In this document: piece by piece, positions 111-44,478 of the stretch
Layout: each line of letters opens with the position of its first letter
How positions within the stretch are numbered: the first letter of the stretch is position 1
Assembly (NCBI GenBank): GCA_964580715.1
Contig: CAZOKU010000004.1
Span: 1-55,362 of the forward strand
Source: an uncultured Rhizobium sp.
GTDB lineage: Bacteria; Pseudomonadota; Alphaproteobacteria; Rickettsiales; UBA1997
Length of the DNA stretch: 55,362 nt
Direction of reading: 5' to 3'
Notes under the pieces: model-generated
What the model was told of the DNA's origin: nothing
Seen by the model: the letters and a program-made list of their open reading frames with translations, nothing else
Databases searched by the model: none
Position numbers and translations under genes: made by a program

Positions 111-173
111 AAGACGCCGGTTTTCACGCATTTTGCCTAGCAAAAATTTTCCTTTTTATCCCGAATTGGCGTT
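111..173. repeat. Dispersed repeat copy (AAGACGCNGGTTTTCACGCATTTT ... TTTTTATCCCGAATTGGCGTT family)
   Basis: The same blocks recur at 50823-50904 (core 50864-50888, arm 50884-50904). Confidence 0.8.
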
Positions 174-238
174 ATAACCATCATATTTGATTTGCGACAT
201 TGCCTTTAGCGTTTCTGTGGTAATTATCCCGTTACATC

Positions 239-323
239 GTCATCCTTGAGACGAAGGCTCGAGGATCTCTCGAGTTTTGCGTCAGAAGTAAAGAAATCCT
301 CGAGCCTTTGGCTCAAGGATGAC
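239..323. repeat. 85-bp palindromic element with ~28-bp terminal inverted repeats (GTCATCCTTGAG...CTCAAGGATGAC)
   Basis: 239-266 matches the reverse complement of 296-323 at 25/28 positions. A related half-copy lies at 13148-13182, and related cores lie inside a CDS at 7044-7198. Confidence 0.8.
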
Positions 324-367
324 AGGTTTTTATTAATATAATTGTATTTTTGTAGAAAAGTTTTTAG

Positions 368-395
368 TTGATTCCTTAAAAAAATAAACTACATT
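368..395 (+). promoter_or_regulatory. Candidate sigma70-type promoter for tRNA-Asn (TTGATT-N16-TACATT)
   Basis: -35 TTGATT at 368-373 and -10 TACATT at 390-395, about 24 nt upstream of the tRNA. The candidate ssrA promoter uses the same -35 hexamer. Confidence 0.4.
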
Positions 396-418
396 ACGCC
401 CCTCAATTTTTCTCACAT

Positions 419-493
419 TCCTTGGTAGCTCAGAGGTAGAGCAGTTGGCTGTTAACCAATTGGTCGGGGGTTCGAATCCCTCCCAAGGAGCCA
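419..493 (+). tRNA. tRNA-Asn (anticodon GTT), CCA encoded
   Basis: Cloverleaf folded by hand. Acceptor TCCTTGG/CCAAGGA, D stem GCTC/GAGC, anticodon loop CTGTTAA, T arm GGGGG-TTCGAAT-CCCTC, discriminator G, then CCA. Total 75 nt. Confidence 0.93.
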
Positions 494-536
494 TAACAAA
501 AAAGCCTAGCCAAAAGCTGGGCTTTTTTGTTATGGA
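491..536 (+). terminator. Rho-independent (bidirectional) terminator after tRNA-Asn
   Basis: Stem AGCCTAGC (503-510) pairs with GCTGGGCT (516-523) and is followed by TTTTTTGTT. It is flanked by the symmetric sequences CCATAACAAAAAA and TTTTTTGTTATGG. Confidence 0.75.
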
Positions 537-805
537 TGATTGGAAGGGATTTGCCTAAGTAATTCGACCACGCAGAAGTCAAAAATCGTCTTAGCGATTG
601 AAACTCCTGTAATACTGCGCGCAAGCACCAAAAAATCAATGAGTATTTCCTCCCTTACTCTTTCTTAACGAATGAAATGAGTTTAGAAAAAGTTAAAAGC
701 CGAAACTAACCTGTAACCTTTCGCTAAAAAAACAGTTGATTTAGAATCTGTAACAAAAGATGCTGTTTTTTAAAATCAAAATTACACAAAACCAGAAATA
801 AAAAA

Positions 806-1339
806 ATGCAAACTGTTGATCTTCTAGGATTATTTAAAGCGGCGATTTCTGGTGATCAAACTAGTTATGCAAAATTTTTAGAGGTAAGTGCTAAGATTTT
901 GAGATCTTTTGTGGCAAAAAGAATTGCTAGAAATGATGTTGAGGATGTGGTGCAAGAAATTTTGATTTCCATTCATAAATCACGGCATAGCTTTGATGCA
1001 AAAAGGCCGATCATGCCTTGGATTTTCTCTATTGCGCGCTTTCGAATTGCGGATCATCTTCGCAAAACTTATGCAAGTATAAATTTTGCTGATGTTGATT
1101 TTGATGAATTATGTGAAGTTTTGCCTGATGTAACGACTAGCAATGAAAATCACGAATATGTAAATGACCTGTTAAAAAATGTTGAACCTCTTAAAAAAAA
1201 CATTTTACTGATGCTTTATGTTGAAGGTTATAGTGTTAAAGAAGTTGCAGGAAGCCTTAACATGAGCGAGTCGGCGGTTAAAGTTGCTGCACATCGTGTA
1301 ATTAAAAAAATAAGGAAAGAATGGAAACCAATGAGCTAA
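806..1339 (+). CDS. sigF: ECF-type RNA polymerase sigma factor (SigF-like)
   Basis: Region 2 (EDVVQEILISIHK...PWIFSIARFRIADHLRK) and region 4 HTH (YVEGYSVKEVAGSLNMSESAVKVAAHRVIKKIRK). Overlaps the downstream DUF1109 gene by 19 nt. Confidence 0.85.
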   Translation: MQTVDLLGLFKAAISGDQTSYAKFLEVSAKILRSFVAKRIARNDVEDVVQEILISIHKSRHSFDAKRPIMPWIFSIARFRIADHLRKTYASINFADVDFDELCEVLPDVTTSNENHEYVNDLLKNVEPLKKNILLMLYVEGYSVKEVAGSLNMSESAVKVAAHRVIKKIRKEWKPMS

Positions 1340-1959
1340 TTGCAAAATTAGTGAATGAACAGAGCAAAAAACCTCTAAAAACGCCGCAATATTATGCTGT
1401 GATTCTTGTGGCTATGATGTTTTTTTATGCTGTTATAATCCAATATTTTCTAGGGTTTCGTAGTGACTTAGCAATTAAACTTCGGCAATTGGCATTTGAT
1501 ACAGAATTATTGTTGCTGATTTTACTGCAAATTAGCGCAATTTATGCTGCGGTTTTAATGCTTTATCCTGATAAATATCAAAAGAAATCATTAGTTAAAA
1601 TTCCTTTTATTTTACTTACCTCAATTGCGATTTTTTTGATTTTGCAATCTTTTTTACAAATCAATTCAGAAATAATTTCATCACCAGATTCACATAAAAT
1701 AGAATGCTTGATTTGTATTGCTGCAGTTGCTTTTTTACCATCTTTACTGATATTTGTTTTGCTAAAAAAAGGCAATTCAACAAGTTATTCTCAAGCAGGA
1801 TTTTTTGCAGTTTTGATTGCAACAATAATTGGTTGTATCACATTAAGGTTGGCTGAAAATAATGATTTAATTTCTCACCTTGTTATTTGGCACTATTTAC
1901 CAACCCTTTTGTTTGCGTGCCTAGGAGCATTTTTAGGAAAATTTTTACTGCGGTGGTAA
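1321..1959 (+). CDS. nrsF: NrsF-family (DUF1109) membrane anti-sigma factor
   Basis: About 6 predicted TM helices. N-terminus METNELIAKLV resembles DUF1109 starts. Translationally overlaps the ECF sigma gene, as in the Caulobacter sigF-nrsF pair. Confidence 0.75.
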   Translation: METNELIAKLVNEQSKKPLKTPQYYAVILVAMMFFYAVIIQYFLGFRSDLAIKLRQLAFDTELLLLILLQISAIYAAVLMLYPDKYQKKSLVKIPFILLTSIAIFLILQSFLQINSEIISSPDSHKIECLICIAAVAFLPSLLIFVLLKKGNSTSYSQAGFFAVLIATIIGCITLRLAENNDLISHLVIWHYLPTLLFACLGAFLGKFLLRW

Positions 1960-4023: not shown

Positions 4024-4035
4024 AAAAATATATGC

Positions 4036-4199
4036 ATATACCAAAACATAAATCTATTGATAGTTTTTACTTCGCCTTTTTGGTAAAAATTTACTCGAGA
4101 AATAACGCTGTATCGCCTGATACAGCTTATATTTCTTGTCGTAATTTTTCCTCAAAAATTCTTTGTAAAAACTATCAATAGATTTATGTTTTGGTATAT
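4036..4199. mobile_element. 164-bp MITE-like element with 34-bp perfect terminal inverted repeats
   Basis: 4036-4069 ATATACCAAAACATAAATCTATTGATAGTTTTTA is the exact reverse complement of 4166-4199. There is an internal hairpin at 4107-4126, and a solo half-copy at 18121-18176. Confidence 0.8.
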
Positions 4200-4638
4200 A
4201 CTTAAATTTCTCATCATTTGCCCAAAAAAAATCGCTTCTCATTTTGAATGGGCCGGCCCTCTTATAGCGCGCATCATAGTTGGCTATGTTTTTATGTTAA
4301 CTGGCCTTGCAAAACTACAAAATCTTGACGCTATCATTGAAAATTTTGAATATTGGCAAATTCCATTTCCACATTTTACCACACCTTTCGTTGCAGGATG
4401 GGAGTGTTTTGGAGGGCTATTCTTAATGTTAGGATTTCTAACCAGAATCTGCGGCGGCGCCCTTTCTGTTGTGATGATTGTTGCAATAATCTCTGCTAAA
4501 TTTATGGAAATTGACTCACTAGAAACTTTACTTGGATTTGAAGAAGCAATTTACATCGCCGTCTTTGCCTGGCTTGCCATCTGCGGCGCAGGGAAAGTTT
4601 CTGTTGATTATTTGATAGAAAGGAAGTTTACAAACTAA
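4186..4638 (+). CDS. DoxX-family membrane protein
   Basis: PLIARIIVGYVFMLTGLAKL motif and 4 TM helices. It occupies the last position of the bufferin-type operon. The annotated ATG lies inside the MITE-like TIR, so the start is uncertain. Confidence 0.75.
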   Translation: MFWYILKFLIICPKKIASHFEWAGPLIARIIVGYVFMLTGLAKLQNLDAIIENFEYWQIPFPHFTTPFVAGWECFGGLFLMLGFLTRICGGALSVVMIVAIISAKFMEIDSLETLLGFEEAIYIAVFAWLAICGAGKVSVDYLIERKFTN

Positions 4639-5945: not shown

Positions 5946-8900
5946 CTAATATATTTCCGCTCTTGCGCCAAAATTAGAATTCGTCTCATCAGCAATTGAA
6001 AGCATCGCAAAGCCGCTGTTTTTTAGTTTGGTGATTAGTTTTTGCTCAATTTGGCGGGCTTGGCTTTTGCCAGATTTGATGCTGGTGTAGAAAAATTCGC
6101 ATTTTCCTTTGTTTCTGTGAGATATGACGCGGTGTAAAAAATTATCCGTTTCACCGGCATAATAAAAATTATTTGCGGTTTTTAAAACATAAACGATGCT
6201 GTGGCCAATGTCGTTTAAAGGCGGAGTTTCATTTTCTTTTAGGTTTTTTATTTGCGAAATTTCAGTTTCCGCTATTGCAGCTAAAATTGATTTTATGTGA
6301 TCAGTTGAATTTTTGCCGTTTAATTTCAAAAAAGATTCCACCAAATTATTTTCTTTAGCGCCCCCCACACCCACAGCATCTAAGCTTTCATAGCATTGCT
6401 CAATTTCTTTTGCTCGCGCAATTATTTTTTCATCAACGCCAATTTTTTCCGCAGTATAAAAAGCCGAAGAGTTTAAATCAAAGCCTTCAACAACATGATA
6501 AGTTGGAATATCGCCGTCACACTTCATTTTAATCAACCTAACATTTTGCAAATTCACTGCTTTATTCGCAAAAATTTCATGCCAGTGTGTAGCAAAAATT
6601 GAGCGAATATTTTTTTCTGCCAAATGCTCTAAAACACTTGCAGCAATTGCATGCCCAGCTTTTGACTCTGTGCCCTTCCCCAGTTCATCAATCAACAAAA
6701 AACTTTTTTTTGTAGCATCACGAAGTGCCACTTTTATGTCAGTCATTTCAACTGCAAAAGCAGAAAGACCAGCTTCTGGATCGTCACTGGCGCCAGTTCT
6801 GACATACCAGCCATCAATTGCTTGGCTGATAGAAAGTTTTTTTGCTGGAAACATAAAACCACAAGAACCAATCAGTGTTGCTGCAGCAAGCGACCTGATC
6901 AGCGTTGATTTTCCCGACATGTTATGTCCAGTAAGCAAACAAGTGCCGTTAAAATTAATGGAATTTGTAACTGCTTCAGACGACTTCATCCAGTAGGGAA
7001 AAAAGTCGGTGATTGCAATTGATGAATTGCCGTTTGGTTGTTCGTCATACTTCGACAAGCTCAGTATGACTGGCTTAGCTTCAACACAACCCATACCTTG
7101 TTTTTCCTTGGCATCATATCCCTTGGTGTCATACTGAGCCTGTCGAAGCATGACCTGCTCGGACTCTTCACAACATGCTTCGACAAGCTCAGCATGACCG
7201 CTAGTGTTTTCATGACCGATGCCTTCATCACCACCATTAAAAAAATTCAGCGTCCAACTTTTCACCTGGCATTCTTTGATATGCAAATAAAAAGTTTTGA
7301 GCAAATTAGAAAAAGTCGCAAGATGAATAATCGGCAAACAATAAGGCGAAAGCTCTTTTGCAGCTTGTTTCAAAATTTGTCTAATCGCTTCATGAGTTTT
7401 TATCGCAATATTTTTATATTCCGCCAAAACTTCCTCAACTTCCTTTACAGTCCAGCGATCTTTAACTTCTTTGCCATAACGATCAATTGGACGAATCAAC
7501 TTAAACTCTTCCACCGCTTTAGCCCCAACGCTTCCCAGCATCCAAATTGCATTATTATGAATATCGTAAGAAAGCGCGATTCGCTTAGATTTTTCCACCG
7601 TTTGAATTATTGGAATCAACTTTGTCGTTAAAATTTCTTCATATTTTTTTGCCAATTTTTCAGATTTTTCATATAAATCAGCGATTTCTTTGCTTGAAGT
7701 TTTGGCAATTCGCCCACGAAATTCTTCTTCAATGCGCTCAAATAAAGTTGCGGGAATCAGCTCGCTGCTTGGAACGTAAGGCGAATCTTCTTCCTTTGGC
7801 AAAATATCCGCTAAAATAGCGATTATTTTTTTCGCCGTATTTTGTAAAATTTTTTCTTCTGATTTGATCGAAGAAATATAAGAGACAATTTCTAAACTAT
7901 TTGCGATAAAATTTTGCGAAAAATTTTTCTGACAATTTAAAAAAATTTCTGCCAAACAAAATAAATCTTTCAAAATTTCTGGATGCGCCTCACTTTTATT
8001 CAAAGTTTTAATATATCTAACCGGATTTGACACAATCAAAATCGGCAAATTTTTATTCTCAGCCAACAGCTCTAAAATCGCCTGTCTCAGGCTATCCGCA
8101 TATTTCTTCGGCGGCGGATTAAGCAAAATATTGCGCACAATATATTTACAAGTTGCAGGGCTTCCTTTCGGCAACATCAAAGCCACTAAATCAGGAATTC
8201 CTTTTTTTGGCAAAATGCCAATTTGCTCTGCAGTTTGCTGATAAAGCGGATAAGGACAATCAAGGGTTTGCAAATTTTCAACTGTTGTAAAAGGAACATT
8301 TGCATCCAAACCCAAATCAATTTTTATCAACTCTTCCACGCGCGTGGCAAAAGCTTTTGAAGAATATCCACTAATTTTTACTAAATTCTGAAATTTCAAA
8401 TTTGCGGCATCACACAAAGTTTTAGAAATTTTGTCATGAACAAAAATTCGATTCATGCGCCCGCTATATTTATTAAGCCTGATGGTTGCTGCCTCTTCAG
8501 TTAATCCTTCCAAAATCAAAACCGTTCGCAAATCAGGATTAATTTCAAGCAACTTAACTCCCTTGATGCTTGTTGCAATTCCAAATTCTGGAGGCGCTTC
8601 TGGAAAGCAAATGTTGGCCTTGTGGCTCATCGCCAAACCATAAGTGTAAGTGGGCGATGACGGAGTTATAATTTCAGAAATAAATCTAACTTTGCGACCT
8701 TTTTTGTGAATGTCATCGGCTTGTTCACACACCACAACCGAAAATCCCGCTTCGGTTAAATCATTTAAAACCGCTTGAATGTTAGCAATTGGCATCCCCG
8801 CTCTTGGCCCTTTTCTGCCCATGCGATTGATGCCACAATGTTCCACTAAAAAAATCGAATCAACACCCCAAGTTTCATAAAATTCACCAATTTGAATCAA

Positions 8901-9143
8901 AACAATTTTTTGCGGATGAATTTTTTTAACGCGAAAAAGAAAATCAATGTTAGAATCCGAATCACCATAATTATGCTTAAAACCCTTCCAAAAAGGCTTT
9001 GCAGCATCTCCAATTCCAAGCGGCATGCTCGCGTCAAGATCTTGCATCATCCTTGTTGCAACTGGATGAGCAATAGTTTCAAATCGTGAATTCCAAAATG
9101 GTGATTGGATGAATAAATCATACGGAAGAGATTTTTTCACCAT
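5946..9143 (-). CDS. MutS-family protein with C-terminal GIY-YIG nuclease domain (plant MSH1-like architecture)
   Basis: N-terminal mismatch-domain motif IGEFYETWGVDS. Walker A TGHNMSGKST and Walker B FLLIDELGKGT, then THWHE. The C-terminus IVYVL-x6-FYYAGETDNFLHRVISHR...QIEQKLI has the GIY-YIG pattern. Confidence 0.8.
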   Translation of the reverse strand: MVKKSLPYDLFIQSPFWNSRFETIAHPVATRMMQDLDASMPLGIGDAAKPFWKGFKHNYGDSDSNIDFLFRVKKIHPQKIVLIQIGEFYETWGVDSIFLVEHCGINRMGRKGPRAGMPIANIQAVLNDLTEAGFSVVVCEQADDIHKKGRKVRFISEIITPSSPTYTYGLAMSHKANICFPEAPPEFGIATSIKGVKLLEINPDLRTVLILEGLTEEAATIRLNKYSGRMNRIFVHDKISKTLCDAANLKFQNLVKISGYSSKAFATRVEELIKIDLGLDANVPFTTVENLQTLDCPYPLYQQTAEQIGILPKKGIPDLVALMLPKGSPATCKYIVRNILLNPPPKKYADSLRQAILELLAENKNLPILIVSNPVRYIKTLNKSEAHPEILKDLFCLAEIFLNCQKNFSQNFIANSLEIVSYISSIKSEEKILQNTAKKIIAILADILPKEEDSPYVPSSELIPATLFERIEEEFRGRIAKTSSKEIADLYEKSEKLAKKYEEILTTKLIPIIQTVEKSKRIALSYDIHNNAIWMLGSVGAKAVEEFKLIRPIDRYGKEVKDRWTVKEVEEVLAEYKNIAIKTHEAIRQILKQAAKELSPYCLPIIHLATFSNLLKTFYLHIKECQVKSWTLNFFNGGDEGIGHENTSGHAELVEACCEESEQVMLRQAQYDTKGYDAKEKQGMGCVEAKPVILSLSKYDEQPNGNSSIAITDFFPYWMKSSEAVTNSINFNGTCLLTGHNMSGKSTLIRSLAAATLIGSCGFMFPAKKLSISQAIDGWYVRTGASDDPEAGLSAFAVEMTDIKVALRDATKKSFLLIDELGKGTESKAGHAIAASVLEHLAEKNIRSIFATHWHEIFANKAVNLQNVRLIKMKCDGDIPTYHVVEGFDLNSSAFYTAEKIGVDEKIIARAKEIEQCYESLDAVGVGGAKENNLVESFLKLNGKNSTDHIKSILAAIAETEISQIKNLKENETPPLNDIGHSIVYVLKTANNFYYAGETDNFLHRVISHRNKGKCEFFYTSIKSGKSQARQIEQKLITKLKNSGFAMLSIADETNSNFGARAEIY
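7044..7198. repeat. Three alternating-orientation copies of a ~27-nt palindromic core (GTCATRCT-GAGCYTGTCGAAG-YATGAC) inside the MutS-like CDS
   Basis: Copies at 7044-7070, 7128-7154 (inverted) and 7174-7198. The host frame stays open and translates them as VILSLSKYD, MLRQAQYD and GHAELVEAC. Confidence 0.85.
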
Positions 9144-44368: not shown

Positions 44369-44425
44369 TGCTAAGATTTCTCTAAAAGGTGTAATTATCC
44401 TACAACGAGTTGTGTACGATAGGTA

Positions 44426-44476
44426 TAAAAAGGGGCCAGGCTACTTTTAAGCTTAAAAGTAGCCTGGCCCCTTTTT
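44426..44476. terminator. Perfect ~50-bp palindrome (bidirectional terminator) downstream of xth
   Basis: AAAAAGGGGCCAGGCTACTTTTAAGC and GCTTAAAAGTAGCCTGGCCCCTTTTT are centred on AAGCTT, with A and T tracts on either side. Confidence 0.8.
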
Positions 44477-44478
44477 AT

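Follow-up and report, generated by a model that had tools for sequence, protein, structure and literature searches.

Probable REP-type hairpin copies in the linker of an MSH1-like MutS gene, and the association of their family with a small GIY-YIG nuclease gene

Results

A MutS/GIY-YIG gene carries three copies of a palindromic core

The DNA analyzed here, referred to as the window, is a stretch of 55,362 nucleotides (nt; contig CAZOKU010000004.1) from an uncultured freshwater bacterium, and its feature of interest is a block of short palindromic repeat copies at 7044-7198 that lies inside a gene for a MutS homologue. This host gene (5946-9143, minus strand) is intact, encodes a protein of 1065 amino acids (aa) and is the only long reading frame through the repeat region. 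A Pfam search of the protein identified MutS_I (PF01624, 4e-13) and MutS_V (PF00488, 5e-40), and its last ~90 residues matched GIY-YIG (PF01541) at 22.3 bits, just under the cut-off of 22.6. AlphaFold2 predicted a beta-beta-alpha-beta-alpha fold for the GIY-YIG region at residues 982-1042. The solved structures of the Taq and Escherichia coli MutS proteins matched residues 720-917, and all columns that are invariant across the family in a 26-sequence alignment were retained. As judged from its sequence, the protein therefore appears to have the architecture of plant MSH1 (treated in PMC11275761 and bioRxiv 10.1101/2020.02.13.947598), with MutS I, MutS V and a C-terminal GIY-YIG domain in one polypeptide. 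Orthologues of ~1000 aa were common in metagenome-assembled genomes (MAGs) of uncultured freshwater Alphaproteobacteria and Rickettsiales-like bacteria and were also found in Elusimicrobia and Agarilytica; some of these are named as GIY-YIG nuclease family proteins by their source records and carry PF01541.

An earlier, sequence-only reading of the window had proposed three copies of a ~27-nt core within the block, and these were found: GTCATACTTCGACAAGCTCAGTATGAC at 7044-7070, its inverse GTCATACTGAGCCTGTCGAAGCATGAC at 7128-7154 (93% complementary) and CATGCTTCGACAAGCTCAGCATGAC at 7174-7198. A degenerate pattern allowing up to three mismatches had three matches in the 55,362 bases, compared with 0.00 in 100 shuffles. 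The open frame of the host gene reads the repeat copies as ...SGHAELVEACCEESEQVMLRQAQYDTKGYDAKEKQGMGCVEAKPVILSLSKYDEQ..., which includes the anticipated peptides VILSLSKYD, MLRQAQYD and GHAELVEAC.

Each copy is a hairpin unit with its own orientation. Unit 1, a singleton (7044-7070, minus strand), has the gene-strand sequence (A)GTCATA-CTGAGCTTGTCGAAG-TATGAC, is translated as VILSLSKYD, displays a canonical CGTCAT head on the plus strand and folds into an 8-bp stem at -5.5 kcal/mol. Unit 2 (7127-7154, plus strand) is inverted relative to units 1 and 3 and reads TGTCATA-CTGAGCCTGTCGAAG-CATGAC, the complement of which is translated by the gene as VMLRQAQYD. Unit 3 (7174-7198, minus strand) reads (G)GTCATG-CTGAGCTTGTCGAAG-CATG on the gene strand and is translated as GHAELVEAC. 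The units fit the consensus of the wider repeat family described below, with heads TGTCA, AGTCA and GGTCA and, as tags, TGTC in unit 2, CGTC in unit 1 on the plus strand and GGTC in unit 3. Units 3 and 2 together make up an inverted doublet (7128-7198, minus strand) with a 21-nt spacer at 7153-7173 and a 25-bp hairpin, for which folding energies of -24.8 kcal/mol as DNA (z -7.5) and -69.9 kcal/mol in its mRNA context (z -5.6) were obtained. A list of GTCAT positions further revealed a probable decayed repeat head, CATCGGTCAT, at 7210-7219 (minus strand), 18 nt upstream of the unit 3 head. The three copies anticipated from sequence thus stand, but their anatomy is that of an inverted doublet, a singleton and a head-only remnant in a gene carried on the minus strand. 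Between units 2 and 1, the 57 nt at 7071-7127 hold three short CCAAGG(G/A)A-like direct repeats (ACCAAGGGATATGATGCCAAGGAAAAACAAGG) that fall outside any recognised unit.

On the opposite strand, an open reading frame (ORF) of 197 codons (7038-7631, plus strand), already suspected of being spurious, reads the copies as the mirror peptides VILRQAQYD, VILSLSKHD and CFDKLSMT. A Pfam search of this ORF returned no family match, and we consider it a shadow ORF rather than a gene because it lies antisense to a frame that is conserved at 70-77% identity in the orthologues.

The repeat block is extra sequence at a domain junction

The stretch between the FSN and PYWM motifs measures 109 aa in the host protein and 41-48 aa in 74 of 80 orthologues; therefore, ~65 aa are extra. 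Exceptions among the 80 were four proteins with 54-63 aa, including P0066, P0069 and P0077, and P0012 with 77 aa. In the 26-sequence alignment, a block of ~62 columns between WTxNF and FFPYWM was occupied by the host protein alone. At the DNA level the extra segment extends over 7041-7241 on the minus strand (approximately residues 635-701, with edges defined to within ~10 nt on either side) and is in frame and free of stop codons. A foreign peptide segment of 50-60 aa had been suggested at this site; the segment is indeed extra relative to the orthologues, but longer than that. A native origin would have been indicated by a homologous segment in a repeat-free orthologue, and no repeat-free orthologue among the 80 had one at the linker. 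The G+C content (GC) of the block is 0.48, compared with ~0.37 for the gene, making it the most GC-rich part. No intein or intron features or Rfam matches turned up, no search aimed at inteins or introns having been made. A GATGAAG 7-mer present on both sides of the insert was considered as a target-site duplication and rejected as not significant.

The AlphaFold2 model of the host protein (mean pLDDT, the confidence score of the model, 68.6) contains a confident helix at residues 567-627 and strands at 634-636 and 709-714, while residues 638-705 have a pLDDT of 26-31. The model thus places the extra segment as a predicted disordered stretch after the long lever helix and before the strand that opens the ATPase domain, in keeping with a surface or loop position. 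Residue 609 of E. coli MutS aligns with residue 734 of the host protein, and the limit between domains III and V of the E. coli protein is at 567/568 (PMC11275761). The block is therefore positioned where MutS domain III (lever) meets domain V (ATPase), as the sequence-only reading had proposed. As also noted there, it is just upstream of the Walker A motif GHNMSGKST (6903-6929, minus strand; residues 739-747), which begins ~33 aa past the end of the insert.

Related proteins carry hairpins at the same linker

Two further orthologues were found with palindromic inserts at this linker. P0002 (locus L001, from another metagenome) has an inverted pair of the same core at 2166-2236, straight after WTLNF. 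This pair is read as SLSLSKR...TLRQAQRP, partly in frames that differ from those used in the window; it has a stem shorter by two positions (GGTCG-CTGAGC...) and a 19-nt spacer with no relation to that of the window. P0012 (locus L002, 2598-2728), the sister orthologue of the host protein (P0001), has an in-frame palindrome with CATCGTCATC...GATGACGATG ends at the same linker (27.8 kcal/mol). The termini of this element are those of a palindromic doublet that lies between genes at 239-323 of the window (plus strand; CATCGTCATCC...GGATGAC ends; -30.9 kcal/mol, z -8.1), and its family differs from that of the MutS units. The resemblance of the 239-323 element to the MutS units, noticed previously, holds for the (C)GTCAT...ATGAC(G) ends that they have in common but not for their interiors. 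Other palindromes in the window were an inverted repeat at 4026-4209 with 69-nt arms (83% complementary) and a perfect 54-nt palindrome at 44425-44478.

In the orthologue tree, P0001 and P0012 group as sisters (SH-aLRT 96), and P0002 belongs to the same polytomy. All three inserts start 1-3 codons from the conserved WTxNF motif. These relationships leave room for a single ancient insertion in the common ancestor of P0001, P0012 and P0002 that was later remodelled, as REPs (repetitive extragenic palindromes) attract REPs, with no independent hits. A clade of the three insert-bearing proteins was not rejected (p-AU 0.257), and the sister grouping and the shared starting point of the inserts fit such an origin; however, the best tree requires two changes for the inserts, the insert of the sister protein comes from a different family, and the copies in the window and in L001 have different frames and spacers. 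In addition, the centres of the copies match the consensus perfectly while the host proteins differ by ~25%, which suggests recent arrival or homogenisation of the copies. We consider a single origin a genuine but somewhat unlikely alternative. Thus, the linker is either a permissive site that has been hit repeatedly or an old, remodelled nest of REPs.

The same core was also detected within a second repair gene, the RecN/SMC_N gene (131-1870, minus strand) of the low-GC proteobacterial MAG L029. This gene carries two direct, in-frame core copies at ~560-650 that are read as VSLSKGQGDDLGHAEPVEAC, within the in-frame stretch RDSLRTVSLSKGQGDDLGHAEPVEACSPAG. Among the 134 cross-phylum matches listed, 18 were inside long ORFs, and four of the eight of these that were tested were real genes. 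In three of these four genes the core is near the N-terminus, and the true start may be downstream.

The core belongs to a hairpin family dispersed across phyla

Within the freshwater metagenome run in which the locus was found, the search covering only DNA runs kept as contigs, two other contigs contained the whole core-spacer-core doublet at ~88-90% identity, and about five more had single cores. The doublet is therefore a repeated unit, although not an abundant one, in this run.

Scanning for CAYRCTTCGACARGCTCAGYR with one genome per species located the core in at least 120 loci from Alphaproteobacteria, Methylococcales, Chloroflexota, Bacteroidota, Ignavibacteria, Calditrichota, Nitrospinota and other groups, where we estimate that ~9 matches would arise by chance. 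From 131 distinct units, the consensus T-G-T-C-A-N-N-CTGAGCYTGTCGAAG-N'-N'-T was derived. Of 113 units, both sides of pairs 9-27 and 10-26 had changed in 70 and 64, respectively, with 1-2 unpaired, and the covariation score was reached by 0 of 500 shuffles. These data support the view that the unit is a dispersed, cross-phylum REP-type hairpin and not native MutS sequence. A literature search using the DNA strings and peptides of the repeat returned nothing relevant.

The TGTCA head is 82-96% conserved, while pairing with its 3' complement is limited to roughly half of the units, so that the GTC head is best regarded as an oriented tag and not as part of the stem; in the window units, GTC does pair with GAC. 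By our own reading, the centre would pair C-G, T-A, G.A, A.G and G-C around a 5-nt loop, CYTGT, whereas folding with nearest-neighbour parameters results in an 8-bp stem closed by a loop of 11 nt. At pair 4-20, the cross-phylum units had GC in 74 cases, AT in 38, AC in 20 and GT in 1. Such wobble is found almost exclusively on the CTGAGCYTGTCGAAG strand, which argues for selection acting on one single strand. At another pair, counts in the cross-phylum hits L003-L122 were AC 39 versus 0. The centre can be read without a stop in five of its six frames (LSLSK, ELVE, LRQAQ, FDKL and STSS), and in-frame survival is therefore easy.

Close doublets were found in ++, +- and -+ arrangements in 52, 47 and 46 cases, respectively. 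With no polarity preferred, doublet orientation carries no weight in the interpretation, and a reading of the doublet as a gene-less miniature whose heads face outward was abandoned. No transposase was found beside the paired copies in L074 and L098, which are accompanied by ordinary genes only. In L074, a Bacteroidota contig, two cores 2.2 kb apart (434-454 and 2608-2628) have identical 30-nt flanks on each side, which suggests that a segment with the repeat at its edges has been duplicated; the ORF enclosed by the two cores has no family.

The core flanks the gene for a small GIY-YIG nuclease

A motif screen of the core-bearing loci identified, in L079 (a Nitrospinaceae MAG), a 106-aa GIY-YIG ORF at 7496-7816 that has a same-strand core upstream at a distance of 58 nt and whose last codons are overlapped by an inverted core copy, the bracketed region being 7420-7816. 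With the L079 protein as query, 80 metagenomic loci (L123-L202) encoding proteins of 52-69% identity were recovered. The core, allowing at most one mismatch, occurred 136 times in the 201.5 kb of these loci, compared with 0.035 expected. It was present in 43 of the 80 loci and on both sides of the gene in 30; a copy lay within 150 nt upstream in 33 loci and within 150 nt of the 3' end in 39. The nearest upstream copy had the '+' orientation in 26 of 33 cases and the nearest downstream copy the '-' orientation in 33 of 39. The order at bracketed loci is hairpin(+), gene, hairpin(-), with a median span of 372 nt for the 22 clean brackets. The 3' hairpin copy often provides the last codons of the nuclease gene (...PSTGSG*). 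Conversely, among 120 loci picked only for the core, tblastn found the nuclease gene in four, three of which (L011, L016 and L079) have it directly beside the core.

The bracketed nuclease is a single-domain GIY-YIG protein of 91-110 aa. Searches against Pfam and NCBIfam returned only generic GIY-YIG signals, and among solved structures, UPF0213 proteins come closest to it (1zg2, E 2e-15). A special kinship between the small nucleases and the GIY-YIG domain of the MutS protein was also considered and discarded, the only match being a generic 29-aa motif. The repeat family is thus statistically tied to the gene for a small GIY-YIG nuclease, a result that goes beyond the sequence-only reading, as does the finding of different hairpin families at one MutS linker in related lineages.

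The breadth of the family bears on whether the MutS segment could be a native, lineage-specific expansion of the linker, formed by local duplication and inversion, whose likeness to a repeat is coincidental or convergent. Linker length varies elsewhere, as in P0066, P0069 and P0077, all three window copies are in one gene, and a target duplication was not found. An identical 15-nt centre is nevertheless present in unrelated phyla, at no fewer than 120 loci, and beside GIY-YIG genes, whole doublets are present on other contigs of the same metagenome, and the GC of the block is above that of the rest of the gene. Taken together, these observations leave a native expansion with very little probability.

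Discussion

We conclude that a dispersed REP-type DNA hairpin most probably gave rise to the block at 7044-7198, non-coding copies of it having landed in the part of an MSH1-like MutS gene that encodes a poorly conserved linker. The hairpin copies survive in the linker because they are stop-free, add a multiple of three nucleotides and are situated in a disordered loop. Selection on an intact MutS protein would keep only stop-free, multiple-of-three inserts in such a tolerant loop, and the insert may be translated as a surface loop of ~65 aa that is near neutral for MutS function. The MutS copies could be gene-less members of the nuclease-bracketing system, and they might have been seeded or maintained through recognition of the hairpin as single-stranded DNA (ssDNA) by a GIY-YIG nuclease acting in trans.

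Several results weigh against this conclusion or against the link with a nuclease. The invariant 15-mer CTGAGCYTGTCGAAG has no copy in the 55-kb window outside the MutS gene, single units fold weakly under nearest-neighbour parameters, and ~105 of the ~195 extra nt fall outside recognisable units. No target-site duplication was found around the insert, since the best flank alignment score of 14 was equalled by 628 of 2000 shuffles. Neither a motif search nor tblastn detected a small GIY-YIG gene in the window. For SsnA of Neisseria, a nuclease considered below, cutting of DNA has been demonstrated but transposition has not (PMC11893778), and the published search string for the Ssn-related motifs (SRMs) of that system, HGTCWYN(0-2)YYVSBRHN(0-5)WNVSBRGN(0-2)RNCYNB, has no match in the window, where only its HGTCWY head fits the units. 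In the freshwater run, only ~9 contigs bear the core, and none is at the depth of the window genome; the two contigs with whole doublets and the approximately five with single cores have depths of 7-12, compared with 5.5 for the window contig. Finally, the Logan contigs of this run break at 7072-7080, and continuity across these positions therefore rests on the assembly of the window itself.

The break also bears on whether the block is an assembly artefact, a chimeric join driven by the palindrome, or lies in a dead gene. Coverage of only ~5.5x would fit an artefact, and the support from Logan is weak because the run may be the sample from which the window originates. However, the Logan contigs match the window at 6700-7080 and 7072-7500 with 0 differences on both sides, and none of the contigs of the run has a joint that skips the repeat block. 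The two sides are halves of one MutS orthologue, joined in frame and without a stop across 65 extra codons, and two orthologues from other samples have analogous inserts. The retention of all invariant residues argues against a dead gene. We therefore give artefact or gene death scarcely any credence.

Another explanation is co-option of the 25-bp hairpin, either to tune MutS expression or to create a contingency locus in which repeat-mediated deletion or frameshift would yield transient mutators. The strong structure of the doublet as DNA and mRNA, the reported clustering of REPs in repair genes (PMC3733652) and the presence of the core in RecN, a second repair gene, are compatible with a function of this kind. 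Yet no variant forms or joints were found in the available contigs, most orthologues have no insert, and filtering by a permissive loop accounts for the data without any function; co-option is thus improbable.

A more far-reaching proposal is that the TGTCA-NN-CTGAGCYTGTCGAAG-NN-T hairpin represents a minimal mobile element in its non-autonomous form, the sole protein of that element being a ~100-aa, Ssn-like GIY-YIG ssDNA nuclease, and that insertions of the RPE (Rickettsia palindromic element) type in protein genes, such as MutS here and RecN in another MAG, are its footprint across many phyla. We offer this tentatively and regard it as unlikely on present evidence. If it were true, RPE-like insertions would gain an enzyme and a mechanism, namely hairpin-directed cleavage of ssDNA followed by re-joining or by copy-in during replication or repair, which could explain the frequent hits in repair and replication genes.

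Comparison with known repeat systems

RPEs, as described by Ogata et al. (2000/2002, via PMC10969869), are like the repeats of the window in being in-frame palindromic repeats within unrelated protein genes that read them through as additional peptides at positions compatible with the protein fold, and each comes from an alphaproteobacterial lineage rich in A+T. The defining features of RPEs recur here as several palindromic copies, an in-frame location in an open frame and, by prediction, a site compatible with the fold. The classic RPE-1 is ~150 bp and a single copy adds ~45 aa, whereas the window units are 27-nt hairpins arranged as a doublet and a singleton. The host organism, moreover, is an uncultured freshwater bacterium and not Rickettsia. 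A further known class, the MITEs (miniature transposable elements with inverted repeats), is set apart by its flanking target-site duplication, a feature that the insert lacks.

Closer counterparts are the CGTC/TGTC-tagged REPs defined by Di Nocera, De Gregorio and Rocco (2013), who equate RPE-4 with CGTC-4 and RPE-6 with CGTC-1 (PMC3733652). Intragenic CGTC REPs are frequent in repair genes, where in-frame dimers or clusters encode up to 43-82 aa (PMC3733652). Shared with the window repeats are the oriented (C/T)GTC head followed by A-T, the formation of inverted dimers and the in-frame copies in repair genes; in the wider family described here, the position after the A of the head varies. 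The ~8-position stem and 5-nt loop of these REPs fit the present units only on condition that the tandem G.A/A.G counts towards the stem. Unlike CGTC/TGTC REPs, the window family has a tandem G.A in its stem, a 15-nt centre that is invariant across phyla and a GTC that can pair with a 3' GAC. The unpaired tag with a CCA-like 3' tail of those REPs is not a trait of this family, which has no CCA tail, and none of the REP peptides in Additional file 3 of Di Nocera et al. contains SLSK, RQAQ or ELVE; nor do the strings of the core appear anywhere in the text or supplements of that article. The evidence supports classification of the window element as a REP-type hairpin of the CGTC/TGTC-tagged kind, with an indirect link to named RPEs through the equation made in PMC3733652. 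Accordingly, the original suggestion of an RPE-like, selfish in-frame repeat is supported in kind but refined in identity: the element is of the tagged kind that Di Nocera et al. equate with RPE-4 and RPE-6 and not with the ~150-bp RPE-1.

In REPIN/RAYT systems, GTAG-tagged REP doublets are reportedly mobilised by Y1 transposases, as is said of the work of Bertels and Rainey in 2011, Nunvar in 2010 and Ton-Hoang in 2012. The present family resembles them in two respects: inverted hairpin doublets recur complete with their spacer, and an enzyme gene present in single copy has its own repeats on its flanks. It differs in having no GTAG head and no doublet polarity, and its associated gene encodes a GIY-YIG nuclease and not an HUH/Y1 transposase.

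A likeness was also found with RF02901 (AaHKsRNA41, an Aggregatibacter small RNA), the consensus of which at 8-95 is a doublet of nearly the same core (GCUGAGCUUGCCGAAGCAU ... AUGGUUCGGCAAGCUCAGC). An Rfam search of the window repeat region gave sub-threshold matches only; RF02901 matched 7128-7198 at 30-37 bits, compared with a gathering score of 97, and it was the doublet alone that matched and not the 187-nt RNA. Since the RF02901 consensus holds a doublet, such doublets are transcribed in at least one species, and the AaHKsRNA41 small RNA may be a transcribed copy of the window repeat family.

The system most like the bracketed nuclease loci is Ssn/NTS (dRS3) of Neisseria. SsnA, a 94-aa GIY-YIG protein, binds and cuts CGTC-type NTS repeats as ssDNA, and the ssnA gene is flanked by them (Chenal et al. 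2025, PMC11893778). In both systems, a small GIY-YIG gene lies between inverted, oriented hairpins with an HGTCWY head, and many gene-less copies are dispersed. By our own reading of the L079 translation, residues Y7, Y17 and E65 of the nuclease are at positions similar to Y6, Y17 and E64 of SsnA; the Ssn nucleases, whose cuts in ssDNA fall next to the CGTC-type NTS repeats, are assigned to CDD cd10448 (PMC11893778). The stem and loop sequences of the Ssn repeats differ from those of the family described here, and the SRM string matches only 1 of the 80 GIY-YIG loci. The window units were considered as SRMs by the published definition and were not classified as such, the string having no match in the window.

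In-frame palindromic insertions have been known since the discovery of RPEs in Rickettsia, and the mechanism of their arrival has long been open; Chenal et al. (2025) tied the NTS repeats of Neisseria to SsnA (PMC11893778). The evidence supports the present locus as a new example of RPE-like intragenic REPs, a phenomenon already known, for which a plausible enzyme partner has now emerged. It adds a clean example in a MutS/GIY-YIG gene, in which a domain junction tolerates ~65 residues that are predicted to be disordered, and a linker in which three related lineages carry hairpins of different families. It further adds evidence that the repeats flanking the gene of a widespread small GIY-YIG nuclease belong to a family missed by the published Ssn string. 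For annotation, LSLSK, LRQAQ, ELVEA, FDKLS or STSS in proteins or in short "hypothetical proteins" flags the repeat. The link with the nuclease also makes a bench test possible, in which binding, cutting or moving of the hairpin by the enzyme can be assayed.

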